A stretch of 60,549 nt of DNA, the filler included, from Sphacelaria rigidula (lineage: Eukaryota): the NCBI GenBank assembly GCA_964200075.2. It is 6 parts of 6 records of this genome, joined end to end, with 100 filler letters (N's around TTAATTAATTAA, not from the genome) between each part and the next. Parts side by side here need not be neighbours in the genome. Positions count along the whole stretch, not along the records: positions 10,112 to 20,120 come from CAXNAA020007326.1; 5 more parts are not named here. One strand, 5' to 3'. The notes beneath the pieces were generated by a model. That model was not told the DNA's origin and made no database searches. It saw nothing but the letters and a program-made list of their open reading frames with translations. Every line of letters starts with the position of its first letter. Positions within the stretch are counted from its first letter, which is position 1. Shown here piece by piece: positions 2,693 to 50,543 of this stretch. A program made the translations under genes and the position numbers.

Positions 2693-4498
2693 CTATTGAA
2701 ACAGCGGGTATTGCTTTTCTTCGCTGTGCGCCCGAAGAACCCGAGGGTCGACATCCAGTACCCATTTGCCTGTCTCCCTGCTCTCGTTTCTTGGCAGCAC
2801 GGACGTCGCAACCACTGCCAATCCCCCGTCTGCAGGGAGAAGAGACTCAAGCCGCCCATGACTCGATCTCCATCGCCCACCCGCGGTGCGAGTCGTCGGC
2901 GCAAGTCGCGACCGCCCTTCGGCTCGCCCCCCACGCAATTGCACATCTTCCGCCCATCTCGGCCAATTTGGCAAGCTCGTGCGAGGCCGTCGAGAGTCGG
3001 GAGAAGCGGGAGGATTAGCAACGGCAGCAATGCTCTTTATCAAGAGGTCAGATCGTCGTCTGTGTTCAAGACTTTCTGCCAGAGCTGTGATCGGCAACGA
3101 AGAACGCCGCCTTGTGCTTAGGTATTTTAAACTATTTGTTATCGATGTAGTGTCGTCTGATGAATGACTATGGTCTTCGACACCGCCAGAGCTCGCTGTA
3201 CCAGACATGGTGGTAACACCAGCTGACACTCGTCTACTCAGATGTCTGGAGGACGGAGTCGTCGCATTACCGCTTCCTGCAGATACTATTTTGGCAGATA
3301 CCATTTTTGATTCGCCTTCTTCAGGGCTAGGTGTCCCCACCCAGCCGGCAGCCGTTCCCGTGACGGCCGGGATTGTTGGCGCTTCGATCGAGCTTGGTAC
3401 AGGTAGTAGCTGTCTCAGTGGTCGAACTATGCTGCCGCTAGCGGACGGCCTGCGTATTTTTGTTCCTGGCGATGACGTAGATCTATTTTTGGTGCTGTTG
3501 TCGGCTAGGCTTCCTTGAGAGGTGCTCACTTGGGCATCATCGCCACCAACGACATCACCATACACCGGCCTGGTGCTCGGTTTTGAGTTGCCTCCTCCCT
3601 CCGTACGTTGATGCGCCCCATATGCTACCGCCGTCGCGCTGCTCGACATCTCGCCTTCTTCATGGCAGGAAGTTGCGAGTCCTTGATTATCGGGGTCCTC
3701 GAAAGTTGGCGTGGGTGGATACGTCGGGAGTTGTTTGCCTATCACCAGTGCAGGTGGTGAAGACGACCTAGAGCGTTGAATGTGATGGGTACCCACCGTC
3801 TCCTCTCGCAACGCACTCGCTGTTGATTCAAGCAATAGTGGTCGATGGGAGGTACCACCATCCCCTAGACCCTCGTGAACCGCTGGTCTCTCGCTGCATT
3901 GCCTTGGAAGGTTCGTTTGACGGTTGATCGCTGCTGTCACGACCCTTGATCGATTTGACGATTCTATCACGTTCGACGACCTACGCGTGAGGTCGGCAAC
4001 CTTCACCACCTTCTCCGTCAGGGATACTCTCGTATTCGTTCTGTCTATTGACGCACCACGGCCGTCCTGGTACCTCCCGCTGCTATCTTGTGTACTGCCT
4101 ACGTCATGTCTTGCCAGACTTGAATCACGTGTCACCAGCGACAAGTCATGGCGAATTCGCGACGAGAGAGTCGAATTGTTTCTACCGGCATCACCATCAG
4201 CGTTCCTGGGCAGACTCTCACCACCAATACCCCCTTCTTCTCCCAGAGCACACATTTCTGGCCGATACCCAGCGTCGTTGACCCTTCTTCCTACGGCGGT
4301 GGCGGCAGTGGAAACGTCATCTTCATCTTCCCCTCGTCCAGCAATATCCACGAAGTTGGAGGTCGATGTTTCTTGGTGGAACGCTGACAGACTCCTAGGG
4401 GTGCCGCTATTTCCGCCCGTCGATCCCTCATTACTACAGCGTTCATCACCGCGACTATCACGGCGCCGGCGGACAAGGTAATCCCGATGTTTCCGCGC
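2693..4498 (-). CDS. Terminal exon of a large low-complexity (S/R/G/T-rich, probably disordered) hypothetical protein
   Basis: Acceptor GACAG|GCG at 4498, open frame ARKHRDYLVRRRRDS...EEKQYPLFQ* to TAG at 2693. Phase-compatible with a small upstream exon near 4643-4716 (...KRDEAEAAE|GT). Confidence 0.7.
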   Translation of the reverse strand, partial: ARKHRDYLVRRRRDSRGDERCSNEGSTGGNSGTPRSLSAFHQETSTSNFVDIAGRGEDEDDVSTAATAVGRRVNDAGYRPEMCALGEEGGIGGESLPRNADGDAGRNNSTLSSRIRHDLSLVTRDSSLARHDVGSTQDSSGRYQDGRGASIDRTNTRVSLTEKVVKVADLTRRSSNVIESSNRSRVVTAAINRQTNLPRQCSERPAVHEGLGDGGTSHRPLLLESTASALREETVGTHHIQRSRSSSPPALVIGKQLPTYPPTPTFEDPDNQGLATSCHEEGEMSSSATAVAYGAHQRTEGGGNSKPSTRPVYGDVVGGDDAQVSTSQGSLADNSTKNRSTSSPGTKIRRPSASGSIVRPLRQLLPVPSSIEAPTIPAVTGTAAGWVGTPSPEEGESKMVSAKIVSAGSGNATTPSSRHLSRRVSAGVTTMSGTASSGGVEDHSHSSDDTTSITNSLKYLSTRRRSSLPITALAESLEHRRRSDLLIKSIAAVANPPASPDSRRPRTSLPNWPRWAEDVQLRGGRAEGRSRLAPTTRTAGGRWRSSHGRLESLLPADGGLAVVATSVLPRNESRETGKWVLDVDPRVLRAHSEEKQYPLFQ

Positions 4499-5007
4499 CT
4501 GTCAGATATTGCGAGGTGTCGGCCCTATGTCAAAAGAGAGCATGAAAACTACGTGGCGATTACAGTACGCCAGTGGGGGTACAGATGTCCACCACTGATG
4601 GGGATTACATGTAAGTTAGCTTTAGTTCATCTTGCCTCGTACCTCGGCAGCTTCCGCTTCGTCTCTTTTCACTTCGCAATAGTTCAGGATTGGTTCCCAG
4701 CCGGGTTCACCGGGACCTGGGACTCTCCAAGGCGGCATGCCCAGGGTGGGCACGTAGTACCGCATCTGCCACGAGTGGGACCGACAAAGCACGGAAATAT
4801 TATTGTCTGGTCGAAGCCATCCGGGCCTATCAACGGTCGCCCCAATGCAAGGAACAAGCTGCTCGTAAAAGGCAAACAAAGATGCGCAGGTGTGTACCAG
4901 GCTTCCCCCCTTTTTCAAAGCCAAGTATAACCCATAGTATGGTGCCACCAGGCCCAAGCCTGCGTTCAACGCTTTGTTCAAAATGATTGAATCTCATCTT
5001 GTTCTAC

Positions 5008-6572
5008 CTGCTTGGGGTCAACGTAGTAGGGTTGTGGTTCTCCACAATTGTCAGTTACTCTGGGCCCCTCCGTCGACGCTTCTCGCCATCCGAAGTAGCT
5101 CGACTCGAGAGCGCCCCCTGAGCGCCACATTGGACGATTGTCTTCACGTTGGTCATTGCGCGACCTGCCTGACGGGAAGCTTGGACGCCTTTCACGATCC
5201 AGAGACTGTAAGTCCGAGTAGTCCCAGCTTGATCTACCCTTGGCCATGGCTTCCGCCCCCGCTGCGAGGGCTCCGGAACCACGCCAAGGGCGTCTATTCT
5301 CGTTATCTACTTCCACCGATGATACACGTGACTGCCGTACCCCCCGATGATATTCTCGATGCTGGTGATCGGCACTGGTGTTGGCTGGGGACGTTCGCGG
5401 ACGTTGAGTTCGTTGAGGCACAGGCAGATGGTACCGCTCGCCGGTGCGATTTTGTCGCTCCATGCTCTCCTCTTTTCCTTGGATGAATTTCCTTTTGTTT
5501 TGCGTATCGTCTTCGTCCCTCTTGTGCGGTTGTCGTCCCAAGCTCTGGTGGGCACTGTACCCACCCTCTTCCGCTCGTTTTCTGTGGTTGTTTTGTCGAG
5601 ACCGACTGGAGCCATCGGCGGTCCGGGGACGTACGGGGTGGTGTACATCATTTACCCATCTATCCCTTTCCATTATTTCCCCCCCCTTTATTCTTGCCGG
5701 TCCCATCGTGGTCGTGTCTAACTGATTGTTTTCCATATCATCAGAACCAGGCTCTCGCCGACCGAGCACATGATCGCCGTCACGAGATGACGCCGGTCGA
5801 GAAGTCCCACAATGCCCACTTTGCCACTGTCGCGTACGGCCGCTATCTTCCCACGGCTCCAGGCACGATTTACCTTTCCTTTTGGTTACGTCAATGGCAT
5901 GAATACCACGGGGGGTACGTTGATCAGACTCTCCTCTTCGATCTACTATTGCCGCTGTGGAGGCCCCTCTTCGCGGGGCATGACCCGAACCTTTTCGCGC
6001 TTCGTTGGTCGTCGACTGAGCACCATGGTGCAACGAGGGTTTGCGACACAGCGTGGCGTCTATTGGCGTGCGCTGGTCGGTCGTGTATGCGTCAGTGTAT
6101 AAATTCACAGGCTCTGAACCCCCGTTGTCGGGGTAGTGGTCGTCGTTTATTCCACTGGATGATCGACCTTGGATTCCGGTGGGCGAGTCGGATGTAGACC
6201 TTGTACGTCTGTGTTGCTGTTTTTCGACTTTCAATTGACTGGACCGTGCCGTTCGAGGTCCGGTGCCCCGGTTCTCATTTTTCTCCTTCGGCTTGCTCGA
6301 CGCCTCGAGCGCTGGCTCGTATCTTCTCGTCCACGCTTCAGAATTGCCTCGCTTTTGTGCACGTGTCTTTGCGGCGCTTGCTTTGCTTTCTGAAGTCCTC
6401 TTCGCCCTATTTCTCGTGACGTTCGCCCTGGTCGGACTACCCGAGCTGTTCAGCTGGTCGTATGAGGGAGGGGGCAAAGCGCGAAGCAGTTCACCGGTAA
6501 CGCGTTTAGGCAGGGAGAGTCGTGGAAACATAGAATCGCTTACGTTAATGGTGTCCAATCCAGTGATCGCAG
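5008..6572 (-). CDS. Internal giant exon of the same hypothetical protein
   Basis: Open frame of more than 520 codons bounded by TGTCAG| (6572) and CAG|GTAGAA (5008); R/S/G/E-rich. Confidence 0.65.
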
Positions 6573-7137
6573 CTGACAGGTAACTACTGCCGGCGCAGAT
6601 TCGAATTTATATCCGAAAGAAAACGTCACGTAGGTTGTGCAGCATATAGCGTTGGGGAGCCCTTCTCAGCTTTACAAGCGGTCGACGACGATGGATGGGA
6701 AAGGTGTTCCCCGTCGTTGTCAGATAACTTGGGATGAAGGGGCCGGCGCCAAGCGTCACATCATCCCGAAGGCTTTGAAAAGGGCGAATTATTCCCTGAA
6801 AATCAACTGTTGCTTTTACTCTGCACGCCCACTGGGAAGACGCCGAACCAGGTCGTCGCCAGGGGTGCTCGCAAGTATAGGGTACGCCGGGAAAACCGTT
6901 CTGTGTTATATCCTGTGCCAGAATCGCAAGCTGTACCATGAACTCTGTAAAAGTTGAGCGCCACCGTTTTCCGCCCACTTTTTGTCGTTTCTGCTCACCC
7001 TTGTATCTGTCTTGGCCAGTGATTTACCCAGGGTACGTCGACGTAATCCGCCGCCACGGTCGAGTCTGTTTAATAATAAACGGCAAGGGACAAGTACATT
7101 TTTTTCCTGTGTGCTTCATTTTTGTGTAGTCCCTCAC

Positions 7138-9956
7138 CTCCTCCGGGGTCGCGACGCTGCGGCTTGTTTCAGACGTCGTAGCCTCGTAGGCTTTCTTGAG
7201 GGTGGCTAAGGTCGCATCCTCAGCACCAGCGAGTGCCTGCCGGACCTCGGCGAGGGCAACATCGTATCGAGCCCCGCCGTCTGCTTCCACTATTCTATGG
7301 GCGAAAAGTTTCGCTAGCTCGTCGCCGGAACCCCGTGGTTTATCGACTGTTGACAGTCCCCCTTTACGCTCTGCAGCAACCATCGTTTTCTGTCCTTGGG
7401 TAATTTCATCGTTTTTCTCGTTCAGGGAAGTGGTATTCGAGACTGGGTCTGTCACTACACCGGCCCGTGATTCGCCTTCTCCCAATCCATCTACTGCAGG
7501 TAAAAGTGCTCCCGTCCCGATCTGTCTCCCATCCGTGGTTTCCTTCCCGTCAATGATGTGGTCGGGAAGATCTTCGTTGCAAGTTTCGATGACATGTGTA
7601 AGTGGGGCGACTAGCTCTCTTTCATTACTTCCTATACCAGTGTTTTGTTCAATTTGCGCTGGCAGCGCGGTTTTTTCTAAAGGGAGTCGGTCGTCAGCAT
7701 CGTCCGCCGCCCTCGTCGAGAAGGGCCTGTGGAACATTCTCCCGCCTGTACGTGGGCTCTGAAGAGGCTCAGCTCGGTTACCGTCCTTCTCGCAACTCTT
7801 TGCATACCCTTTGCCAACAGCGCTCTCACCTCCTTGTTTTGCGACTGTGTCGTTTTCTTGGTTTGGCGCAGTTTCGAGCGGCGGAACGTTTTCCTGTGGG
7901 CCTACTACACTGGCGAGAAGATCCAACCCGTGATGTTCTGCCCGAGGAGACCATGTAGAATCGAATCTTCGTGTATCCGAGGATGTGCTCTTAGCTGGGA
8001 GATGCGGTTTAAGTATCCCGACAGCATAACCCCCACGGCTTGTACGTGCATCTTGAGCATCGCTTGTCTCGGCGCATTTCCAGTTGTTTACACCACACCG
8101 TTCGACCTCTTCGGTCGCACGGAATTCCCCGTGCCCGTCTGCCCCCCACGCCCGTTCACCATTTTCCAAGGGACCACGTGACCACGGTGTTGATGCTGGC
8201 ATAGGTAAAATGTCGCCACTCATTTCCGGGTCTGTTGGCTGATGTTGTTGCGACCACCGCTTAACTCTACCAGCTATCCTCTCGCCTTGCGGCTGTACGC
8301 TCATTTCAATCACCACAGGGCTCTCCTGTCCCTCATCATTACGGTCGGACGGGGACCCAGAAGCCGTACCAATTTTGCTGAAGTGTGACTGTGTCCGAGG
8401 CCGTGCTAAGTTCAACACATCATCATCCCCGAGAGGGGACGACAGAACGGAGTGCTGTCGCCTGTGCCGGCTGCTTGTTGTTTCTTCTTTCTGTCCAGTT
8501 CCTGTAAATTTATCCTCTCGCTCAGCGTCATAAGCAACAGGTCTGGCTCGCTCGTTGTGATCGCCGAGGAACGATTGTAGCTGCGGTATCGGTGTCTCAA
8601 GTAAAAGCCTTTCATCTTGACCGTCCGTTGATTGTTTAGGGTGGTTTACATTGGAGAAGGCCTTGTGTTCGGAGGGTAGCTCGTGGCGAATATTATCGGC
8701 TTGATCAGTAGACCTGGATAACCCATTTGGATCGAAGGGACCATCAAGGGCGTCGTTGCTCGATGAAAGCGGAACAGCATCAGTTACACTCCCCAGACCC
8801 TCTAGGTCAGGTTGGTCCGCTGATGGAATCGCTGGCGCAGAAGGATCAACGCGTGCTGCAGTCGTGTGAGCTCTAGCGTTGTCTGCTCGGCCCAAACGTG
8901 TATCACCAGGCACACCGATTTCGCTACCTACCTCGGCTCTCATCGTACCTGAGCTGCCGTTGCCGACCTCACGGTGTATCCCACCGGTCTCGAGAGACGC
9001 TGCCCATGGTCCAACGCTGGCAGCGGCTAAATCATGACGACTCAGCGCTCTCTCTTTGTCACCGTCGACTTGTGGAAAGCTACGGGAGCCTTGCTTCTTG
9101 TCTAAGCTTGGAAGTGCGTTAGCGTCACTTGTCACAACAATGTGCGAAGATCTAGCCGCCAGATTGACTGATTCACGGCTGTGGCCTCTTGCAGCCCTGC
9201 ATGGGTATTCGTGCCTTTCTCCCCTCTCCACGCCACTGATCAACTCTCTCTCATTTGTCTGCGATTGGTTAGTCGTACCTTCGACGGCTACGCCTGCAAC
9301 CCCGACAAATAACGGCTCGGCAGATGTATGACATTTGCAGTGGGGAATGTTCGCGTTTCCACTCGTGGGCTCGCCTCGCAAGACCTCGCCTTGCACTACT
9401 TCGTCCGCATCAACGGGCTCACCACTACCAAACGACGGCGGGCAGGCATCGTTTTGAGACGTTTTACTTGACGCCCCCGGTATTGCGGATCCACGATCAT
9501 TAAGCAAGGTGGTCTTTCTGCCGATCCTTTCACCACTGTTTCGGGAGCTTGTATCAAATACACCTTCGACCGCAGGAGTAGTAACATCAGCAGCTGGGGG
9601 ATAGTTTGCGTCGTCCTCGACCGCTGATGACAGCAGGTTATACTCGCGGTGCTCCGAGATAGGCCTCTCGTGGTCGAATGATAAGGTCGATATGACTCGC
9701 TTCGCTGTTGTTGTGGCTACTCTCGAGGTTGCGGTACTCTGATCGTCGCAGCGATCACCTTCGACGTTCGCTAGGTCGAGTGCAACGAGACTTCTGTGCC
9801 TCGGGGAAACATGTGCTCCTCGATCGAGATAAGGTTGCTGTTTTGCGCCACCGACTGACGCTTCTTCTGCCCAAGTGGGCGACTCGACATGTGGCTCGGT
9901 GTGAAAAACGCCATCCATCGTTATCTTGTGCTTCGCTAAAACCGCGCGGAGTTGAG
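7138..9956 (-). CDS. Internal giant exon (~940 codons) of the same hypothetical protein; 5' part lies off the contig
   Basis: Acceptor TTCAG| at 9956 (QLRAVLAKHKITMDG...), donor GAG|GTGAGG at 7138. Ends in a helical-looking segment LAKLFAHRIVEADGGARYDVALAEVRQAL. Phases require at least one unresolved small exon between this and the next exon. Confidence 0.7.
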
Positions 9957-10011
9957 CTGAATAACCACAAGCGTAGGGTGCCGTGCGTGTAGGTAAGAAG
10001 TTAGGAGGGGG

Positions 10012-10111
10012 NNNNNNNNNNNNNNNNNNNNNNNNNNNNNNNNNNNNNNNNNNNNTTAATTAATTAANNNNNNNNNNNNNNNNNNNNNNNNNNNNNNNNN
10101 NNNNNNNNNNN
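10012..10111. other. Artificial contig spacer (N-TTAATTAATTAA-N)
   Basis: 100-nt block of Ns containing a six-frame stop linker. Confidence 0.99.
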
Positions 10112-10235
10112 ATCGCAAGACGACTATCATGCGCGCGAATTGAAGTCAGTACACAACCGGACAAAATCGGCGGTGGGACGGAATGGCTACACATGACAAG
10201 CCCCGAACGCCGGGTGTCGGTGAACTCTCTGCCTA

Positions 10236-13200
10236 TCACTCGTCATCATCTCCGACATGCATATCTTCATCCCCCACGTCCTCTACAGCGTTTTGTGCTT
10301 GTGTAGTTTCTGCAATAGCGGGCCACACATGATGCGGGAGTTTCGTGGTCGAAGGAAGCTTTGCGAATTTGCAGCTTATCGCTGCAACGTGCTCGAAGGA
10401 AATCGAGCGTACCCGCTTCCCGTCCACCATGCGAAACTCGAGGGTCCACCCTCCTCTTCCATATGTCGACCGCGGTGCGTTCGCAACTACCTTCTTTGGC
10501 ATGTACCATTGAAGTTCTACCTCGTCTCCATCTACCCCCTTTTTCATGGATAAAATTTGCCCGACACAGACCGACACCGGCGAGCTACTCGGCTGCGAAA
10601 AAGCAACAAACTCTCCAACCTCCACCCTGAATAGCGGCCCCGGCGTTCTACTCCGGCCGCGCCTCCCCTCTCCCCCTCCTTGTGGTACAGAGGAATCTCC
10701 AGTCGCTACTGCACTCCCTGCGATTCTGTCCCCCACCGTGGAAGACGGATCGCTCCTCACTCCAAGAGTCCGAGTGGTATCATCCGTGCTGTCATGTGTA
10801 CTTGAGCCCGAAGCCCCCCCACCATCACCTGTGTCGTCGTTTGACTCGGGCCTACTATACAGGGACAGATTCCAGTCGAAAGGAACAGGCGTTGACTTCC
10901 CGACGTCGATAACGCTTGACGCCAGTTCCGACATCAACGCCTGGTGATATTGGTTCGCCGACAACCCCTCCGGCAGCTCATCTGTGTTATTAGACGGTAT
11001 ATTGGCGTATAGTACGGTGCGTGCAGCCTCCATTAGCGATGAGATGGGAAAGCACTGTCATATCGACAACAACCATCCTGCGGGTGATTCACGGGAGTTC
11101 GTGTACGAAACGGAGCGCGAACATCCATAACTCGAGGTAGATGGCCTGTGCCGGATGGTCCGCCGCACATACATGATGGTCCGGATGGTCCCTCTTTCGA
11201 CCATTGTGAAAACCGGTGCCTACACACATCTATAGCAGGCACGACAACGGCATCTATTTTCGCACTACCTTGACGCATGGCACCGATCAACTGGGCCAGG
11301 TCATGACTGAGACTTCTCGGTGGGGGGGGGGGGTGCTCGAGTGATGCTTCGCCAAGATCACCCGTGGAATATCCAGTGGCCGTACAGACACCATCGTAGT
11401 TGAGATGCTCACACTCACCGACGCTGTGGCAGTAAGTCTCGATCCGTCGCTCGGAAGCCTCGATGCACAAGCGGTGCTGTTTCAGGGTGTGGTCGTCCAC
11501 CACTTTCCGTGGGTGATCAGGTGTATCCCGCAGGTCAGGCCAGCTCTTCATGATGGCCATGTACCCCTCGCTGTACTCGCCGTTCCTTTTTTTCCAAGCA
11601 TCACAAACGAGCGGACGGCCACGGTTTGCACTGATAATATTAATTATGCTCCTTGCTCAACCCTTCCTCACCGGTCCATCTCTTTCGATCCTCCAAGAGC
11701 AACCGCGACCACTTGTGGAAGAAAACCTGAAGAATCTACGAACATGAGTATATTTCAATCCTCTCATCCTATCCTGTTTGGCGCACCTGTTGATCACACC
11801 CCAGTCATCCCTGTAGCTTCTTTCCTGTACTTGCATCTTGACTACGCCGTCCGTAGGATCTCTCGACACCTTGAACGCCTGCGGCTTCGTTACAGAGGGA
11901 ATCGGATACATGCAGCCGACGAGAAGGTCCCGGATATTCGCACAGTTGTTCAAGTGCGTGAGGCCGACGTGGAAGTTGGGTTGGCCCGCCCTGTAGGACT
12001 CCAAGACACGTTGACCGAGAAGGGTCCGAGTTGCGGCGTCCGTCTTCTTGAGACCGGCTCCCACCCTATCCGTCAGAAACAAATGTAATAGTCCGGGAAC
12101 TGCACGTATGAGAATGTCTTCCCCAAACATTATCCTCGAGGTTACCTTGGGAACTGTTCAAAGATGCCATGCTGTCACATTCTCTAGACGCAAGGTGACG
12201 CAAGCCTCTCCGCTTGGAACATGGGGATGTACAAAATAGGTGCGGATTTTTTTTTGGGTACCTGCGCTTCAAACATTCGTGTCCATGCCCAATGTTCGAA
12301 ACATGGTCCCATTTCTATGGTTCCATTACTTCACCTACTGGTCGCTTCCGACAACAACTACCGCCATACCAAATTGGGTTCCAAAAACCGAAACGTTGGG
12401 GTCCCAGATGTAAAAAATCAGATCCGGGGTCTTTCGCCGATCCGACCAGACGCTGAAACGAGTGTTTCATCTGGGACCCCAACGTTTCGGTGTTCGAATT
12501 CCAAATTTGTGTGGCGTGTTGTGGTTGTCAGTAGCTACCAGTAGGTGAAGACATGGAACAAGATTTCAAGCGTGTGAGGACACGAAGATTGTGATGGACC
12601 TGGCGCCAATATCCAGCCAAAAAACCATATCCCGGGTGTACAGTTCCGTCTTTTGGGTGAAAACAGTACAGGGAAGACTCCCCTTACGTGATGAAGACGT
12701 CATATATCTCTTTATTTCTGCCGGCGCCAATACCCCACGAAAACCTCTACCCCATTTCTAAAACTCCGTGTTGTGGGTGAAAACTCACTACAGCATGGCG
12801 AGACCCCCTACCTGGAGAAGACCTGGTCTATCTCTGAACAGGTCAAAGGCGCCAGCATCGACGCGCGCATGTCATCCACCAGCCAGCGCCCATCACAGCA
12901 TACGCAGTTGCGGGGATTAACGTTGTTTTCGCGTTGCGCGGAGGGTGGTCGAGGGCGTGGGGTAGAAGTACACGTAAGAATAAAGGACGTGTAGGTCACA
13001 AAAAACACTGCGTGCTACTCTACGGATTCGGCGACTCAGGCGGTGAGACTGATGCCGACATAGCCCCCTCACAAAATCTGCGCCGCAAACCGTCCGTCGA
13101 AACGGCTGTGATCCCACTCTTGGGTTCGTTTGCAGCAACTTCGCCCACATGAGAGGTGTGTAGCAGCCGGAAATCAGCTTGATTTGCCCAAATTAGTCAC

Positions 13201-16200
13201 ATTGTGCAGTACTAAACAAGCTCGCCCGGCATTTCTCATCATCGACTCTGCGCACTTTTTTGGCCGCTTGGGGGGTGGGGGTATATCTCGGCAGCAGTCG
13301 TGACTGGTATCCACGGAGGGGGGAAACTTCCGCCTCATTGCCCTTTGCATCGCGAGGTCTCACCGTCGTGGGTGTGACCCTTCAGCCCGAAGTGCAGTTC
13401 GATGAAGTCGAAGAGACCATAGTACACCAGGAGGTGCAAGAATGCGAGGAAGATCCGGTTCTTGTTCTCCCTTTTCGGCAAATGAAAGGTCCATCGTGCG
13501 CGGGGCGAGGGGGATTAGTGCGATCGTGGTGTCGGTATGAGCATGTACCAACCCCCGGTCTCTCTCACCCCCCACCTCACACGTATCATTCTTCCACCTT
13601 GAACAGTTGTCCATCTGCAGGTGCAGAGCTCGAGGGAGTGTCTTGCCTTCTTTGAGACTGTCCATTATCTCCGTTAGCGTGGCGTGGAGGACTTGGATGG
13701 TGAGATTCGACCCTGATTTCACGCGGAATCGAAGACAAAATGCCAGTTACAGCGCCCTTGGTAAGAGCAAGGCGTCGCCGCTAATGTTTGCTCGAAGTGT
13801 GGTGGTCCGTGGTGTCACGGGCTGGGAGCAGTGACCACGTAATGGTCGACGCACAGTCTGGTCGATATATGGGCAGAATTTCACGCCACCTTCTCCTCAG
13901 TGCCCCCGCCCTCCCCCCGGAACCCCCTCCCTCTTTTTTAAGTAGGGGGGGGTACTGACTATCTTTTCTCTAACCATCATGCGCAGTTCAGGCGAATGCG
14001 AGGAGTTGCGTGTATGTCGGGGTCCACTTTTTGTCTCACCTGATTCCCAATTCGAACCCAGCGTGTAGAACATGCACATCCTGCCGCTCACGAGAGCGCC
14101 TATGAGTTTCAGTCTCATCTGCGACGTTGCAGGCGCGGGAAGCGATGTATTAGATACTGGGTTATATTATATAACGCTGCCGGCCCACATCTCCCGACCC
14201 CCCCCAAAAAAACATCCCTACTTAGCCTATATCGCCACGTCGTCACAACGACGTCTTTCGATTGAAATCGGGTCAAAGCCACCACAACACAGATGCGCGA
14301 TCATCCTCACTTCTAGATTGGCCTCCCGCACGATCACTGATGCAGTGCATCAATTTGGACGTACCGTCTCTTCATTGGCTGGAAACTTTTACCTTCGCTA
14401 TTACGCCACGCGGTAACTGAGTCGTTGCACACCATGTCTTCTCGGAAGATTTGTTTACTACAGCGTATTACCTTCAACCCTTTGCTTGTGTCTTTGGTCT
14501 CCTGTCTGAAGTACGGTGTGGCGTAGCTTGACTGGTCGCTCCCGTCGATCGCGATGCACAGCAACTCGTCCGGAGCAGCCTTCGCACGTGTCTTCGCTGC
14601 CATATACACCCCTCGCGACCTTTTCACATCCTGGAGAAGGTTGCGGCCAAACCATGTAGCACATTACGCGGCCGGACAAATAAGCATCTGTCATGTTACC
14701 ACGCGTCGTCATCTCGGGGTCACGACTGCATACGCACAGCTTCAATGACGCAGACCCAACCGTAGTCGGCCGTCAAAGCGCATTCGAATGTGTCACCATG
14801 GGGCAGCAGCGCCGTCGTGCACAGTGGGGAGTTGCACCCACCCACGTGCTAGGCGAAATTCAGTGAGGCCTTGCCATGGGCATCGTTTCAAATCTCTCAC
14901 GAATATCAACAACCTACAGGCTCGTCCCTGCCATTTCAGCTTCCCCGCCCGCCCGCCGCAACACCTTTCCCCCGATACAAGCAGGGTTACATCATCACGT
15001 ACGACATTTCCCAGATCGGTAAAAAAACGCCACACGTGCACACCTCGTAGTGGTCTCGGAGATGAAGTTTTATATCCGCCATTTCCTCCGTGAGCCACCC
15101 CGATCCTCCCTTTCTGCGCTGTACATCGAGGCTCTCGTTAGCAATAGTGCAAACATCGCATTTGGTGAAGCGCATGGTTTTTTTCAGCTTTATGTGCGGG
15201 CAGTCGTGCTTCCACACCGAGGTGAAGTGTGAGTACTTCGGAGGGGGGCGGCCAGAGGCTTCAACCGCATCAGACGAGCAGAAAATGTTGTACACCATCT
15301 GCAGCGCACATGGAACGGCAAATCGGCGGGAGATAGAGCGTGTAATTACGAAAGTTGCACTCTCGCTCGTAGTACGTCAAACACAGGGTGTTTCGTGCGG
15401 GGGGTGGATTTTGTTTTTGAGGACGTGCGCCGGGATAATTCAAATAATTCGATCCATCAGGGGTGCACGAAGAAAAACTCGCGCACCCACGTCCCGTTTC
15501 TTTGCTTCGGTCCTCTCAGGGGGGGGGGGTAGGATACTAGACCACCCCCCCCCCCTAGGGGGGGTTAGCATTACTCTACTCATAGGTTCCCGCCGGGGGT
15601 GGTCATGTTCGAGGATTGTGTCCGGCGATAACAACCGTCAGGTGAAGCCAAGCCAACCACCTCTCAATAGCACGCAGGTGTTCCCGACGAGAACGAGTCG
15701 TATCTGGCTCTATATACAGGCGAACAAATCGGTACATTCGACTAAGACAAAAACAGAGCGTATATTCTTTTCATTTCGGCCCTACAGGATAGTAGGCGGG
15801 TGGGGTACGCAGGTTTGCGGGATTTGACTTGTCGTGTACCCAGCAATCCACACCAAATTTTCCAATTATGAGACAATTGTTTCGTTTTGTCCATATACTG
15901 GCAGCTACTGGAAATTATCACATTCAATACAAATATCTCACCGTGGCGGACGGATACGACATGTGGATCTCGTTTTTGTCGGGCTGCAGCTCCCAGTTCT
16001 TCGCCATGTCACGTAGCCAGGCCACAATCAGCTGCGCCCCGGTGTTCGTGGCGTCGCGCTTTATCCTGATGTCACGGGGGGGGGGGTGAGGGGGCAGGGA
16101 AGGGGGGCGGGTGGGGACAGGGGACGATGGGGGGCGACTACTACAATTATCGACATCTCACTTGCGTGCTAGTTACAGTGTGCGATAAACGATGGGTCGA

Positions 16201-16866
16201 TCCACAAGGTGGGATCCGGCTGTAGTGGTTCCTCCTTCAACATTACATCCAAGATTGATGAACTCACATGTTGACGGGCCCTACTGACCCAGCCGAGCGA
16301 AGGAGGTTGAACGATGCACCCATAAGCGACCGGTAGAACTGCCAACACACGGGAATGGTGTTGAGACCGTCTCTGATATGCAGTTGCCCATCTGCCTCAG
16401 TGAAGCACGAGCGGACGTATTCCTTCCGAGCGGCTTGCGTGCCTCTACGGTATGGGGGCAAAGCGCTGCGGCACCGTGCTAAAGCCTCCGGTCCCCATTT
16501 CACGTTGCACTCCCCTCTACAACAGTAGGGCGGGTCGGTGTCTGCCGGGTTGTTTGCCTCGGCGGTGGGAGTCGAAGGGGGGCCCAGACGCCGTCGACGA
16601 AACGCGGACCCATCTACTATGCGAGCGATGGGAGTAAGCGCCTTCGGTATCGTCTCAGGTTCGGGATCTCTACGCTTACGTTTGCGACAATTATAAGAGC
16701 GACGGTGGCCAGTCCCTCGGGTTAGATCTCCTGCTGCGCTTGCTGTGACCTGGCCATTCAGGACGGCTGCAAAGCAATCGCCGAGCTGAAGTGCGCGCAG
16801 AAGCATGAACGAGGGAGTCGAGACGAACACCGAGGGCGGTCGAGATGAGTGTTCATTTGTTCTCAT
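10236..16866 (-). CDS. Spliced Sola-like (DUF7869-type) DDD transposase with C-terminal BAH/SH3-barrel-like domain
   Basis: Phase-consistent GT-AG exons: 16866-16268, ~16066-15943, 15298-15044, 14630-14472, 14118-14040, 13712-13598, 13470-13364, 12833-12812, 12065-11787, 11585-11419, then ~11057-10236 (this last junction is unresolved). Spliced motifs: VCWQFYRSLMG, FTKCDVC...HLRDH, CIAIDGSDQ, LHLQMDNCSRENKN, FGLKGHTHDEIDQVFSR, PQAFKV...W. Confidence 0.85.
12320..12559. repeat. Intronic fold-back with ~90-bp arms and a 23-bp perfect core
   Basis: CCGAAACGTTGGGGTCCCAGATG (12388-12410) is the exact reverse complement of 12468-12490. The arms extend imperfectly to 12320 and 12559. Confidence 0.85.
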
Positions 16867-17053
16867 GTTGTACGGGCCCAGGTTGCCACGTGATTAGATT
16901 TCTATTACGGTACTGTGCAGCACCGATTGATTGCGTGATGCGATAATACTGCAGCAAATGGAATGCCATCCTTAGGATCGATCGCGATACATGCAACACA
17001 ATAAAATTCGAACCACAAGAAGGGCCCTGACTACCTGGAGTGGAGTACGTGCG

Positions 17054-17600
17054 ATTATTATTATTATCATCAATTATTCTTCTTCTTAAATCCGTTACAT
17101 TAGCTCGATCTCACGAATCCGCGGTCACGGAGTGCAAGGGCATACCACCCGTACCCATAACCCAAAACAGCCCGCAGAAGAAGGCAAGGAATAAGGCATC
17201 TACACGAAAAATAGGCACCTACACGACGACAGATCCGCGTGAGACCGATTTAACTACCGGAGACCTACTGGTACTGGAATGTAGAAGTCCTCTCGTCGCG
17301 TAGAACAGACAACAATTCCAAAACAGATCTACTGACTGGAGTGTTGTTGAAAGAGATACTTTCCAGAGCCTGCGCACCGAAAACTGAACAACGCTACATA
17401 GGAAGATAAAAAAATTACCACCAAAAAAATTACCTGCTGGCAGCGAGGAGGGAAAGCAAGGAAAATGACCTCCCTCGGGTTCTGGTCAAATACCGTCGTT
17501 ATGGATACACAACAGACAGGGCGTGTCTAGCCTACACGCGGCATAATGTTATTAACAAAAACAGAGTCTGTTCAGAGTGTCAGATACCCTTCCATTAAAA
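17054..17600 (-). repeat. Probable 3' end of a non-LTR retroelement with a (TAA)n/(GAA)n tail
   Basis: TTATTATTATTATCATCAATTATTCTTCTTCTT tail adjoining a purine-rich non-coding tract; no ORF. Confidence 0.35.
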
Positions 17601-18439
17601 CATGGGATACACCAACGGTCTGTCAAAAAATATATTTCGGGACACGTCGGCTTTTTCTCTTTGATATATGCTACTGTATATCGTATACATTAGAAACACT
17701 TTTATTTTTTGTATGATCATATAAATACATATATTTATATTCATGAAAATTCATCAAGAGGCAGCATATACTTCATTATTATGAAGGTGTATAGTAATTC
17801 ACATAGATGCAATGTAATATACAGCATGTAATCCTTATGTTATATACAAAATAAATATATAAAAGGGCAGAAGCAAACATCTACCCCGCAAGGCTCACCG
17901 AACTCCTCGGGTTTTGTCAATGTTTTTTGATCAATTCTGTGCAACAAAGCTAAAAGAATATACTTTCAAAACAGGATAATTTTTTGTCGGAAAATGCCCT
18001 CTGGCATCTGAGGTCATCGGGACATAACGGGCAAGGAGCAGAAGCAGACATTCGAACCCCACAAAGCCCACCAGACTTTTCGATTTCTGTCGGCGTGAAG
18101 TGATCAATTTCTTTTGAGAAAATTAACAGAAATATGCAAAACAGTGTCTATATTGATCAAATCCTTGCGAGAAACTTGACAAAAAAAATCGAAGAAATCA
18201 TGACAATTTTCAAAAAAATACCCTCCGGGAGGGGAGGGGGGGGGCTCCGTGTCCGAATTTTTTCCCTCGACAAAACCGTTCCGATATCTGCGCGGTACAT
18301 TCGAACTGGGCATCTTATGCGGACGCCTTCCGTGGTCACAGGCGAGCAAAAGAAAAGAAATATATTAAATAGACCCGGAGTGAAAAACTCACAAAATGTG
18401 GATTCTTATTTATGCCGGAAGATAACTCATCTGTTCGCC

Positions 18440-18577
18440 TTCCCCTCCCGTGTGACCCCCGCTGATGCACCCACATATACCAAGAGGTGTGGACTGGCGT
18501 CCAGAATAGACGCACCCACATATACCAAGAGGTGTAGACTGGCGTCCAGAGTAGATGGGATGACAACACACACACAC
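18440..18577 (+). mobile_element. 3' fragment of tRNA-SINE family 1 with a (CA)n tail and an internal 45-bp tandem duplication
   Basis: Reverse-complement match to 22462-22545. Duplicated units at 18467-18511 and 18512-18556. Confidence 0.8.
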
Positions 18578-19026
18578 GGTCTGTTCACAACTTCGTGCCT
18601 GAAAGCTAGTTCTTCCAAATATGTCGTTCGGGCAGGTGCCCACGCGTTCCGAGTAACACAAAACCTCACCCCGGCTCCAACAACGACAACCATAGATTTG
18701 TGATAAGTAACACTTCGACCACCTCATCTTGCTTTGCACACAACCTTCTTGCGCTAATTTAGTATAGGTTGTTCTCAGCATCCAATTCCACATGAGCTAT
18801 GGGACTGCTGTGTAGGGATGGGTTTCGGCAAAGTACCCACCACTTGTGCAGTGTTCTTCGGCGGTGCTCCTGCATCATTCGCTCCACCTGCAGGCGGTGT
18901 CGACCCAGACGATGGTGCATCACTGGATTGTACTTGTGCTGCGACAGTTACAGTTCCGTTGCTCGCCCTCGACGCATAGAAAGCGGCGAACATTTGTCAA
19001 CCCTGTTGTGCATCGTGCAAGACCGG

Positions 19027-19147
19027 TGCAATGGGTTAGGGGACCGCGCATCGAGAGGATCGCGTCGGGGTTCAAAACACCTCACGACCGACGTTTTGGA
19101 TAACCAATCGGGCCGGCCCCTGCAAGTGCCACGCCTCTCACCCTAAC
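19027..19147 (+). mobile_element. Truncated half of the telomere-repeat MITE
   Basis: Colinear with the reverse complement of 46770-46888 (GGACCGCG...CCAATCGGGCC...CCCTAAC). Stops at the first CCCTAA. Confidence 0.75.
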
Positions 19148-20120
19148 AGTGCCACTGATCCGTGTATACAACCCGAATATCTCCTCTCATGCTTCTCAAC
19201 CGGACGACCGGGGAGGTTGATATATGGTCGGACAGACTCCGTGTCATCCGCTTTCCATGTTATATTTTTTCAGGCGACAAGATCTCGGAACATGCTAGAT
19301 GCAACTCGTTCTGTGTCTGCACTCACACTCACATCCGCTGAAAGACTCGATCTGGCGGCGTAGCGATGGTGTACAGGTGTCAGGCTGACTGTTCCCGAGT
19401 GCTCCGTGGTTGAACAGAAAAATGACTTGAGAGAGCGGGGCCGGAGGACGCCGAACTCGTTCTGGGTTATGACATCGCATGATAACACGATATCTGTTGA
19501 GCAACTTCGTCCTGGACGTTTTCGAAATGATACGCAGTTCGGACTTTTGATTACGTAACGCCATCGATAGATCGGTCAATGACTACAGTATAACACCACA
19601 TCTATTTATTGATGCAATGTAATCCAGGGTGAGATACTATCATAAGTTCCGCCGAGGAATAGAGAAAACTACCTAGGCGGTGAAACAATTTCGTCGGTAA
19701 CGTATTGAATTCACACCGTTCAGATTCAACCGATATTTTTATGAAATCTAACGGTGATCTTTCGGTTCGGTGCGATTGTCAAAAATCATTTCCGATCCGT
19801 GAACATAACCGTAATTCCGTCGACAAAGTCTGGCCTCTTCGAATATGAACAGACCCATGTTATAGGTACTTCATTAGAGCGACAGGCGGATCATGTGTGG
19901 ATCTACAATGCATCTCAATATAACAGATCATTGAAGGTGTCTCAATTTCGGTTCCGATGTCCTCGTTTATTCGCCGGCTCTGAGTTGTGCACCGTTTCTT
20001 CAAGTAAAAGTGATCACGATTCACAGCAGGACCGGGCCCGGTGGTCGAAGGGTCTCATCATCTGATGAATCGGCATCACCTTCACTTGAAAATACAGTAC
20101 ACAACGAACCAGGAGACCGG

Positions 20121-20220
20121 NNNNNNNNNNNNNNNNNNNNNNNNNNNNNNNNNNNNNNNNNNNNTTAATTAATTAANNNNNNNNNNNNNNNNNNNNNNNN
20201 NNNNNNNNNNNNNNNNNNNN
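20121..20220. other. Artificial contig spacer
   Basis: Ns with TTAATTAATTAA. Confidence 0.99.
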
Positions 20221-20744: not shown

Positions 20745-23700
20745 GTGGACTACAGCAAGCCGCCTGGCTTTGACCGCGCGCGTAACCGTGAGGTGGGCAA
20801 TAAGGACATCACCCTGGAAACCCTGGAAGAGGCGTTCACCAGCGAGCACTGGATAGTGCGCATCTACAAGGTGAGGAGGGCGATGCACGTGTAATTATTC
20901 TTGTCATTGTTGAACTTTTTACGATGAAACGTTCGCTTCTGTTTCGTTATTGAATTTTTTATTATCATCATCATTTATCGTCATGTTATTAAAGTGTTGT
21001 TTATACTGTTTTTTTGTTGATCATTGCTTGCCATCATAATTTTATTGATTAATTGCTATTATTCTCTACTATTGTCTATTATTGCCCATTATTGCTATTC
21101 TGACGAAAAAAAGGAGCCGGCCCGTCGACTTGGTGCAAATTAATATGGTTCGGCTGTCATCACCAGGGTGGAGAGAACTTGCTTTCGATAATCTATGCGG
21201 TGGGGTTTTTGTCCGAAGTATCTGGTTCTCACCGTCGAAACCTTGAGTAGTACGTGAGGAAGCAAGAGCGATGTTGACTGAGTTTGTTTGACGAGACTTG
21301 TGGCGATGCCCGAGTCCTGACCCATTCGCGAGGCCAAAATGCAAGGCGTGTACCGGGCGGGCTGAGATGGGTCTATCCCTTGATATCTCATGAGATCACG
21401 GACTCGTCCGGAGGAAGGGGAGGGGTGTACTCATGATCATGCATGCCATAGGAAGGGGGGGGGGGGGCGTACTCATTTGTTGCTTGCCTTAGTCGTGTGA
21501 CCATTGACCACGCATCCCTTTCGAGACGGAGCACCGATGCCATAGGAAGGGGAGGGGGTCCTATTCAAAGTGTCACAAATAAACTGTGATTATTATTATT
21601 CATTGTTATTTATGTTATTCATTTGCTCTCTTTGTTCCACGTTCCGGAACGTGTCATTCTTTTTTCTAGTATTCTGGTGGTGTCGTTACCCAAATCTTGT
21701 TGGAGACAGTTTCTGAGTGAAGCAGAAACGAACTACCCAGCGGAGCGCTGAATGGGGCATCCATTATCGACCTGTCTATCATGCCTTTTTTTTTTTCTTG
21801 TCTCGCTTCTCGCTGGCAATCTCTCGGAAGCCCAACCCGTCCTGACAGAGTGAGAAAAGCTGTAGGACCGGTGAAGAGGAATAGACGCTGAGCCATGATG
21901 GTGTTGAAGTATCCAAGTAGCGCGACTGGAAACATGGAGTTAGGATGCACACGGCACTACACCAAGGCCGTGCTAGTTCCCAGTACTCGTAATGCACTAA
22001 CACGCATGCCATCGGAACAGAGCTTATTGGCTTCTCCTTCAATTGTTGTTGTCGGCATCAGGACTCGACCGCTTTCTGCACTGCGCAACATGTTTGTTGA
22101 CGAAATGTCGATGTTGGTCGACTGAACACGGTAGTCTTGCTCCGGGTTGGATCCGATGAGAACTCAATCAGAACCGATTTTTTTCAGCAGTTGCAAGACA
22201 GTCTAAGCAAGACGAACAAACGTTGCGTACACGAACACAACCGCTCCCATTGTAATTTCGTGCGCTTCGGTGTTTCATCGTCTCTCCCTGAACCCAACGC
22301 TGTGCCGAACTCGAGCGCCTGTCACGTCGCTGAGAGAGAGAGAGCTGTTGTATGCGATCGTTAGACAGGGTGCGCCTTTGCTCAGGTGTTCCGCATGTGC
22401 TGTCTAGCGCGGCTGCAATGCGCGGAATCTCGACGTTTTAGCATGAGGCTCTTGTGCTGTCGTTCCATCTATTCTGGACGCCGGTCTACACCTTTCGGTA
22501 TACTGTATGAGGGCGCATCAGCCGGGGTCACACAGGAGGAAGGTCAACACAGGGGCTTTTTTTCTTTTATTTGTTTATGGTACCCCACCTCCCTTCTGCG
22601 GTGCTTGCCTTTATTTTTTTACCGCGAGAGGGGTTCAGCAGTCCCTTTCCCTCGGCGACGGTTGAGTCGAATTTTGTCTACCCACGACATGGTCGCTCTC
22701 CAGTGTTGGGCATGGTGTGAGAAGGAATCCCAGATCGCTCCGAGAATTAAACCCACAACCCAACCGTCAGAAGGTTTCGAGGTCACCAACTGAGCCACCG
22801 GGGCGACCGGTCGGTTTATACACCATCGAATATTCGGTTCTCTGGGCAGCGCGAGCTAGATCAAGAGTACGTTGCTCGGTCAAGTTACCGTTCGTCCTTT
22901 CCGGCTATTTTTGTTGTCTGTGGAGCCACCTGTATCCGAGGCGAGGAAGAGAGGGAGAAAAAAAGTGACCGTGCTCGGAAATCATGTTGCCAATTTTTGA
23001 GTCGAGATACGCTCATCCTTGTTTTCGGGTTTCCATTTACTCCGTTTTTCATAATCCATCTTATCCCCCTCTCCTGCCCGCCGCCAGGTATCTTTTTCTT
23101 TCGCGAGCGTTTCCGCTTTGTTTGCCTCGGGCACTGTCGATCTTCACGGCTGGGTCCCTCTGGGGTTAGTTACTGTGCTACAATCGATCAATCAACCAAT
23201 TGATCACAGGTCGACTAGAACCACGCCGACCTACACGGAATACTTATTCTCTGTAGTTTAGTATTCCCGTTGTAATGAAGGGTGCACGGAATAGTGTTTC
23301 CCAGAGTGTTTCTTTAATTTATTGCACCGTGGATTGCGCTCGGCATCGCCCATGACACAATTTTGGGTTCTGGCCTTTTTTTGTTTTCCCCTTCCGAGAC
23401 AAGCACGCCTTTTTTCATAACACAAATATTTTGAGTGTCTGTCGAGAAATCAGTGTCGGGAAACCGCGACCGCCTTTGAAGGCTGAGCCGAGGGTGTGCT
23501 TCCGGTGTCTGTAACCATTGCTGGTGCCCATACAAAACAAGTGGTGAACGCTCGCTCTCACTGGTCCTACGATATAGCCCCTCTAAACGTGCTCTTTGCC
23601 CATGCCCTCTCGGTCGCATGTTTGAAGCCGTGCAGGCACACCTCGAGAGTGCTTGGATGATGACTATGTCGCGTTGCCCCAAGTCAATTGCACTGTCACA

Positions 23701-30229: not shown

Positions 30230-30329
30230 NNNNNNNNNNNNNNNNNNNNNNNNNNNNNNNNNNNNNNNNNNNNTTAATTAATTAANNNNNNNNNNNNNNN
30301 NNNNNNNNNNNNNNNNNNNNNNNNNNNNN
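30230..30329. other. Artificial contig spacer
   Basis: Ns with TTAATTAATTAA. Confidence 0.99.
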
Positions 30330-40337: not shown

Positions 40338-40437
40338 NNNNNNNNNNNNNNNNNNNNNNNNNNNNNNNNNNNNNNNNNNNNTTAATTAATTAANNNNNNN
40401 NNNNNNNNNNNNNNNNNNNNNNNNNNNNNNNNNNNNN
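40338..40437. other. Artificial contig spacer
   Basis: Ns with TTAATTAATTAA. Confidence 0.99.
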
Positions 40438-50443: not shown

Positions 50444-50543
50444 NNNNNNNNNNNNNNNNNNNNNNNNNNNNNNNNNNNNNNNNNNNNTTAATTAATTAAN
50501 NNNNNNNNNNNNNNNNNNNNNNNNNNNNNNNNNNNNNNNNNNN
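50444..50543. other. Artificial contig spacer
   Basis: Ns with TTAATTAATTAA. Confidence 0.99.

Follow-up and report, generated by a model that had tools for sequence, protein, structure and literature searches.

A putative DUF7869-family transposase gene with eleven coding exons and a probable BAH-like tail in genome pieces of Sphacelaria rigidula

The window analysed here is a stretch of 60,549 nucleotides (nt), filler included, from the GenBank assembly GCA_964200075.2 of Sphacelaria rigidula. It consists of six pieces of about 10 kilobases (kb) joined by spacers of the form N44-TTAATTAATTAA-N44, and pieces that are neighbours in the window may be non-adjacent in the genome. The second piece (10112-20120) carries on its minus strand, at the coordinates given by an earlier sequence-based annotation (here the original prediction), an intact spliced gene with 11 coding exons that encodes a DUF7869-family protein of 883 amino acids (aa). 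In the model with the start chosen in that prediction the reading frame runs from the ATG (16866-16864) to the stop codon (10238-10236). When the introns derived from contigs of public sequencing runs are applied to the window, the 11 joined exons comprise 2652 nt, i.e. 883 codons with zero internal stops. With an upstream start exon the gene probably has 12 exons, about 907 aa and a span of 18993-10236; it then occupies nearly the whole 10-kb piece and 124 base pairs (bp) remain past the stop. No second copy of the gene was found by comparing the window with itself. The coding parts are given below, P numbers denoting homologous proteins, X numbers the public runs and joints the splice joints found in their contigs.

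18841..18993, minus strand: candidate upstream first coding exon, ATG 18993-18991, donor GT 18840-18839
16268..16866, minus strand: exon 1 with ATG 16866, or starting at the acceptor 16785; family profile positions 40-200
15942..16065, minus strand: exon 2, 124 nt; contig joints, frame, within the P0007 alignment
15044..15298, minus strand: exon 3, 255 nt, phase 0 at both ends; contig joints, P0001 61% identical
14472..14630, minus strand: exon 4, 159 nt, with D355 in IAIDGSDQ (codon 14546-14544); contig joints, frame
14040..14118, minus strand: exon 5, 79 nt; contig joints, frame
13598..13712, minus strand: exon 6, 115 nt, with D440 in QMDNCS (codon 13611-13609); Pfam DUF7869 match, joints
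13364..13470, minus strand: exon 7, 107 nt, RENKN...GHTHD; Pfam DUF7869 match, joints
12812..12833, minus strand: micro-exon 8, 22 nt, EIDQVFS with D482 (codon 12828-12826); flanking joints in X6, X7 and X8
11787..12065, minus strand: exon 9, 279 nt, C-terminal half of DUF7869; Pfam match below the cut-off, joints
11419..11585, minus strand: exon 10, 167 nt; joint 11580->11782 (cut +5) in X7 and X8, shifted downstream joint
10236..10981, minus strand: exon 11, 746 nt, stop 10238-10236; homologues P0002 (65%) and P0003 (42%)
10293..10655, minus strand: likely BAH-like C-terminal domain, about aa 745-865; alignment to the C-terminal block of the family profile

All ten introns of the model are bounded by GT..AG (20 of 20 splice-site dinucleotides are canonical) and measure 127-746 nt, and the upstream intron that follows the exon with the 18993 start has 2055 nt. 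The original prediction had proposed exons joined in phase at GT-AG sites without any stop codon; this part stands, but the exons number eleven and not ten, the 22-nt micro-exon with D482 being included. Its view of an intact, intron-split gene that escapes the calling of open reading frames (ORFs) is borne out as well. The longest stop-free piece across the gene region, measured from stop to stop, encodes 273 aa, so that a search for single ORFs would not recover the protein; none of the 10 long ORFs of the window that were scanned has a Pfam match. Exon 1 codes for a basic segment, for C115 within a CCxxxC motif and for a region rich in helices that may bind DNA, and exon 3 holds a CxxC...H motif with C288 and C291 encoded at 15149-15160 and H324 at 15050-15052. 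The codon of E480 is divided by the intron following exon 7, and exon 11 codes for a disordered acidic/Gly-Ser linker and then for the conserved C-terminal domain.

Public runs were searched for the stretch and four of them were compared with the piece. X2 is DNA-like, and X6-X8 bear the label "RNA?", which is a guess. All ten model introns coincide with CT..AC joints in spliced contigs of X6-X8 (CT..AC on the shown strand corresponds to GT..AG on the minus strand), and none of these ten joints is present in X2. The donor of exon 1 at 16268/16267 fits the joint 16064->16267 (cut +1) of X7 and X8. The last joint was placed by the tool at 10976/11414 with CT..CA ends, where four letters fit either side; by a shift of 5 nt it would become the canonical intron 10982-11418 of the same length, which needs one substitution in the diverged transcript. 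Since the spliced contigs are 2-9% off the window (4/167, 9/202, 19/316 and 70/801 letters in the listed pieces), the joints demonstrate splicing in the family and not transcription of the exact window copy. Contigs of this kind are unable to show the absence of a rare transcript, and their depths do not measure copy number. Another joint, 16785->18841 (CT..AC), was seen in X6 only, in 2 contigs. Because it reaches the in-frame ATG at 18993, the ATG at 16866 may not be the real or the sole start. With the upstream exon, 51 other codons take the place of the 27 that open the 16866 model, and the ORF remains in frame across the joint.

Profile comparison agrees with the assignment to DUF7869 in the original prediction and identifies the protein as a full-length DUF7869 member. 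Matches of Pfam DUF7869 (PF25273) are colinear in three exon fragments (profile positions 29-70, 70-105 and 114-187), exons 6 and 7 reaching 32.7 and 36.9 bits at a gathering cut-off of 26 bits and exon 9 being under the cut-off if taken alone (21.1 bits, E 2.6e-4). Compared with a profile of 81 relatives, which includes the close relative P0007, the spliced protein scores 461 bits with aa 50-865 aligned to positions 40-760 of 765, and it keeps the majority residue at 35 of the 38 conserved positions that were checked. P0007 from Pylaiella littoralis (CAN0386362.1, named "unnamed protein product" by NCBI) shares 66% identity with aa 120-573 (454 query residues in 457 alignment columns), and this alignment spans 8 junctions. 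Together with the colinear Pfam matches it makes the gene structure more than a product of chance. A search with exon 3 found P0001, which is 61% identical and diverges exactly at the exon ends. The exhaustive search with this exon yielded 62 proteins; nine of the eleven that are longer than 350 aa have a complete DUF7869 about 110 residues downstream, a spacing that resembles that of the window protein, and six shorter matches that were scanned gave no Pfam match. The profile search returned 103 proteins, all carrying DUF7869, and the named members among them are only uncharacterised Mytilus and Magallana proteins, plus EukProt entries. Relatives in viral contigs were not found with the two peptide patterns used. 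In a FastTree reconstruction of 79 rows, which gave long-branch warnings and from which only this pair is used, the window protein and P0007 form a pair on a long branch, separate from the sequences of molluscs. No paper of the literature searched mentions DUF7869, and a published function of the family was not found there.

The motifs listed in the original prediction are all present, i.e. IAIDGSD (D355), QMDNCSRENKN (D440), GHTHDEID (E480, D482) and CxxC...H (C288, C291, H324), and their residues sit in invariant or near-invariant columns of the 81 relatives. Cysteine is found in 76/77 relatives in the column of C288 and in 77/77 in that of C291, and histidine in 77/77 in that of H324; the aspartate of the D355 column occurs in 78/79, and the D and N at D440, the sequence G-H-T-H and the aspartate D482 are invariant (81/81 each). 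The relatives thus share with the window protein the domain order and the invariant residues (Q-x-D-N, K of NKN, G-H-T-H, D-Q). In most of them (750-980 aa, about 30% identity) one unbroken ORF encodes the protein, on contigs of 2.5-12 kb, whereas the window gene has 10-11 introns. Moreover, the window protein and P0007 have glutamate where 80/81 relatives have aspartate (column of D421 in the relative P0061).

The fold was taken from a model of P0061 (754 aa, 32% identical over aa 51-555, 81 aligned sequences), for which the mean predicted local distance difference test score (pLDDT) is 88.5. Its residues 290-433 run in the order beta1 (with D296), beta2, beta3, alpha1, beta4, then D381-N382, alpha2, beta5 and a helix with D421/D423; this order is RNase H-like, the three catalytic positions being taken by invariant acidic residues, and the column of D355 lies on strand beta-1. 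On the model of this relative the core of the DUF7869 family thus appears as an RNase H-like transposase/integrase fold, and by alignment it would be carried over to D355, D440 and E480/D482 of the window protein. The best structural matches are the cores of Tc1/mariner transposases and of retroviral integrases (Z 8-9.4), namely Mos1 with Z 9.4 and a root-mean-square deviation (rmsd) of 18.7 over two domains (227 aligned), the transposase domain of SETMAR with Z 9.1 and rmsd 3.3 (165 aligned) and integrase cores with Z 8-9 and rmsd 2.7 (about 135 aligned). These matches are modest, since according to the realignment tool Z 7-8 is common background, and the Foldseek matches of the model, to RNase H-like enzymes and BAH domains, are weak (best E-value 1.3e-3). 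They gain weight from the places where the invariant residues sit: as in Tc1/mariner enzymes and integrases, one acidic position is on beta-1, another follows beta-4 and the third belongs to the helix behind beta-5. The second aspartate stands in a "DN" motif, which we take to be the arrangement of Tc1/mariner-type enzymes as well. In contrast with these enzymes the DUF7869 proteins have an extra CxxC...H motif and a BAH-like tail, and a match at the sequence level is missing.

In keeping with this, no Pfam transposase family was detected at E <= 0.1 in the 45 relatives scanned, and the search of PDB with the family profile matched a BAH chain alone. One structurally similar cluster of the ESM Atlas carries DDE_Tnp_ISAZ013 on 11% of its members; at E <= 0.1 this family was found in none of the same 45 relatives. 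The original prediction had named two observations that would speak against it, a missing RNase H fold and junctions not used by transcripts. Neither appeared: the model of the relative is RNase H-like, and the junctions occur in contigs of X6-X8. In the original prediction the motifs DNxxxxNKN and GHTxxxxD are said to mark Sola-type and related DUF7869 transposases, which would make the gene Sola-like; this affiliation is a possible one. A DDD catalytic triad is said to be ascribed to Sola in the abstract of Bao 2009. The conserved D355, D440 and D482 agree with such a triad, which is not specific to Sola. A DUF7869-like sequence or a label "Sola1/2/3" was not seen in the part of the Majorek 2014 supplement that was searched, and literature on ISAzo13 together with Sola gave unrelated papers only.

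The C-terminal domain (about aa 745-865) is likely BAH-like, as judged from the model of P0061. Residues 645-743 of that model match the solved BAH domain of EBS with Z 8.0 and rmsd 3.2 (87 aligned), followed by MTA1 (Z 7.7), SHL (7.5), polybromo (7.0) and BAH1 of DNMT1 (7.0), and Foldseek gives a probability of 1.00 for several BAH chains (E 0.01-0.03). The family profile matches the BAH chain of SHL with E 0.028. Pfam BAH (PF01426, gathering cut-off 30.8 bits) has sub-threshold C-terminal matches in 6 of the 45 relatives, the best with 22.7 bits and E 9.6e-5, and has no match at E <= 1 in exon 11 of the window. Folding of this exon with 3 homologues was poor (pLDDT 35); the C-terminus of the window protein aligns to the BAH-like C-terminal block of the family profile. 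A relative of 1486 aa, P0160, carries at residues 1094-1142 a Tudor_5-type match (E 3.4e-7, just below the cut-off) that replaces the BAH-like tail, which hints at swapping of reader modules within the DUF7869 family. Chromodomain integrases of Ty3/gypsy chromoviruses likewise have a reader-type domain fused to an integration enzyme, where it plausibly chooses insertion sites. According to the available part of a survey of reader fusions in transposable elements (bioRxiv 10.1101/2021.11.30.470311) these are mostly Chromo and PHD domains. Unlike them the DUF7869 module is BAH-like, family-wide and located in a DNA-transposase family, and its binding of histone marks is putative. A candidate mark would be H3K79me2, which in Ectocarpus is found on transposons (PMC12477816).

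From these parts a mode of action can be proposed. The presumed DNA-binding, Cys-rich and helix-rich region at the N-terminus would bind DNA and the enzyme would bind the ends of its element, the acidic triad D355, D440 and D482 (with E480 beside D482) would cut and rejoin DNA by means of two metal ions, and the BAH-like tail, past the disordered linker, would possibly tether the enzyme to marked nucleosomes.

We regard it as somewhat probable that the gene encodes the transposase of a large DNA transposon of the cut-and-paste type, resident in a brown alga or a close relative; transposition, the host group, the ends of the element and the role of the tail in tethering are what we infer in this reading. 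The nearest described counterparts are giant transposons of Ectocarpus (Sola1-1_Ec32, KDZ, EnSpm), whose host group is the same as or close to that of the window. The available part of a 2025 study in Genome Biology (PMC12477816) describes DNA transposons of Ectocarpus that carry spliced genes and may exceed 10-30 kb with nested insertions; the models of these "intron-containing genes" were curated from RNA-seq. In the same source Sola1-1_Ec32 has 21.5 kb, imperfect terminal inverted repeats of 282 bp and target-site duplications of 4 bp; spliced genes also occur in MuDR and Helitron families; target-site duplications of 4 bp are given for Sola-1 and Sola-2 and TTAA is marked "possible Kolobok or Sola-3?"; and intact copies of the giant elements are few and degraded ones many. 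The window gene resembles these elements in its spliced transposase gene, the very long transcription unit and the nested, unrelated repeats. It differs in that no ParB-methyltransferase accessory gene is present in the window piece. The likeness is one of description, and the gene may be the counterpart of Sola1-1_Ec32 or of an unclassified family. In view of this work, as far as the available part of the paper goes, transposase genes rich in introns were already known from brown algae, and the present one is one more case. The original prediction overstated the matter when it spoke of a poorly described lineage, for the 2025 study (PMC12477816) already describes giant brown-algal transposons with spliced transposase genes, among them the Sola-1 family of 21.5 kb.

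A mobile element is favoured by the intact catalytic candidates, by the Ectocarpus precedent (high-copy repeats lie inside introns of the window gene too) and by the variation among copies in the runs and among the relatives. Beside the window's own sequence X2 holds variant contigs, for example 3 at position 10281. A joint 13681->17237 that skips 3555 nt and has 5 shared letters was seen in 1 contig of X2 and 1 contig of X6; it marks a deletion variant of a related copy, in which exons 1-5 and part of exon 6 are taken out.

13682..17236, no strand assigned: stretch absent from the deletion variant of a related copy, joint 13681->17237

Relatives are encoded by 471 metagenome stretches, and diverged loci occur within the same assemblies (among the top 15, 9 have the prefix JAAUYE01 and 5 have JADWZK01). 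Loci of the same assembly are 65-73% alike and this similarity is confined to the coding part, so that element ends cannot be mapped by comparison of copies. Inverted repeats were searched for in 41 of the 80 fetched loci of relatives, those with little flank being excluded, and a flanking inverted repeat is absent in 34 of the 41. The remaining seven include three simple repeats (L017, L018, L047), one repeat that is found also elsewhere in its locus (L072) and three that look terminal.

L019 2387-5646, L022 514-4451, L027 665-3055: terminal-looking inverted repeats of 19-42 nt with similar AGTATT-type ends

These three are candidate complete elements of 2.4-3.9 kb in which no target-site duplication is readable.

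Several observations weigh against a mobile element. Neither terminal inverted repeats nor target-site duplications were found in 10112-20120; since the gene fills nearly all of the piece and no ends were found, mobility is not demonstrated, and the 10-kb piece probably lies inside the element. The three candidate elements, with no readable target-site duplication, belong to distant, AT-rich relatives. Related copies at 90% identity or more look few. By their divergence the spliced contigs derive from related copies and not from the window copy, and near-exact matches to the window are contigs of low word depth that include intron and intergenic sequence. In exon 11 the 33 listed coding differences between the window and a spliced contig comprise 16 synonymous and 17 non-synonymous ones, 19 of the 33 being at third positions; this pattern suggests purifying selection and is equally compatible with a host gene and with a transposase. 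Finally, the Pylaiella relative is annotated as an ordinary protein.

Several of these points are shared by the explanation that comes next, which we consider rather unlikely: a host gene, or a small family of such genes, that descends from a transposase by domestication, is immobile and uses the DUF7869 core and the BAH-like tail in a chromatin or DNA-processing role, its introns having been gained during long residence in the host genome. The 11-12 exons with introns of 127-746 nt and the upstream one of 2055 nt suit such a history, and so do intron positions that are common to copies 2-9% apart and exon 3 ends that are common to homologues at 57-69% identity. The substitutions in exon 11, the annotation of a protein in Pylaiella and the lack of terminal repeats within the piece are consistent with it, the C-terminal domain is kept at 42-65% identity in other sources, and a reader-type domain would suit a chromatin protein. 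However, all catalytic candidates and the Cys/His motif are kept, which is permitted but not required in a domesticated gene, and in one and the same DNA run, X2, an internally deleted copy occurs beside more than one diverged copy. The full architecture including the BAH-like tail is found in hundreds of relatives with several diverged lineages per assembly, which is the pattern of a mobile family, and brown-algal transposons are known, from the available part of the Ectocarpus study (PMC12477816), to carry spliced genes. A silent relic, i.e. an unexpressed and immobile window copy whose frame is open through youth or chance while the spliced RNA comes from another copy, is quite improbable: the divergence of the spliced contigs by 2-9%, the identical contigs of low word depth with intron or intergenic sequence and the internally deleted relative speak for it, but neutral decay at 2-9% divergence is expected to break at least one of the features that are preserved here (883 codons without stop or frameshift, 20 canonical splice dinucleotides and 35 of 38 conserved positions), and a rare transcript could escape the contigs.

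The introns of the putative transposase gene contain repeats of their own, high-copy ones being found inside introns 1, 7 and 8. Within the putative first intron the region 18128-18795 is a very high-copy short repeat with tandem 45-nt units at 18464-18553. In all four runs its summed contig depth is by far the highest, and parts of it recur at 58483-58541, 22468-22549 and 31537-31580. A palindromic insert in intron 8 resembles a miniature inverted-repeat transposable element (MITE); it shows the inverted repeats I1 and I2 and a self-match of 77% over 246 nt. Other repeats of high depth lie at 12450-12783 and 13118-13451.

12320..12559, no strand assigned: palindromic MITE-like insert of about 240 bp in intron 8, arms 75-83% complementary

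Piece 1 of the window contains three long frames on the minus strand. The stop-free frame at 7024-10011 has at least 995 codons and continues into the spacer, and those at 4978-6606 and 2693-4501 have 542 and 602 codons. All three look low-complexity and have no Pfam match; a disordered protein with giant exons may be encoded here. The spacers between the pieces are located as follows.

10012-10111, 20121-20220, 30230-30329, 40338-40437, 50444-50543: spacers between pieces

Seen from the family as a whole, a wider proposal may be made tentatively, as a possibility. The DUF7869 proteins would be transposases of a eukaryote-wide cut-and-paste superfamily, which is possibly, though not demonstrably, Sola, with an ancestral BAH-type reader that steers insertion to marked chromatin, and the brown-algal lineage would have become multi-exon and be either mobile in giant elements or in the service of the host as a chromatin factor. 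Of the new points, the fold assignment of DUF7869 and the conserved reader-like domain are the most useful. In the literature searched, mostly titles and the openings of abstracts, no paper describing a BAH-carrying DNA transposase was found. DUF7869 escapes ordinary ORF calling, and its function is given as unknown in Pfam; for this family the window provides a concrete, RNA-guided gene model, and by its fold DUF7869 is tied to transposases and integrases. Given a conserved BAH-like tail, one could test in a family of DNA transposons whether targets are chosen by chromatin state.

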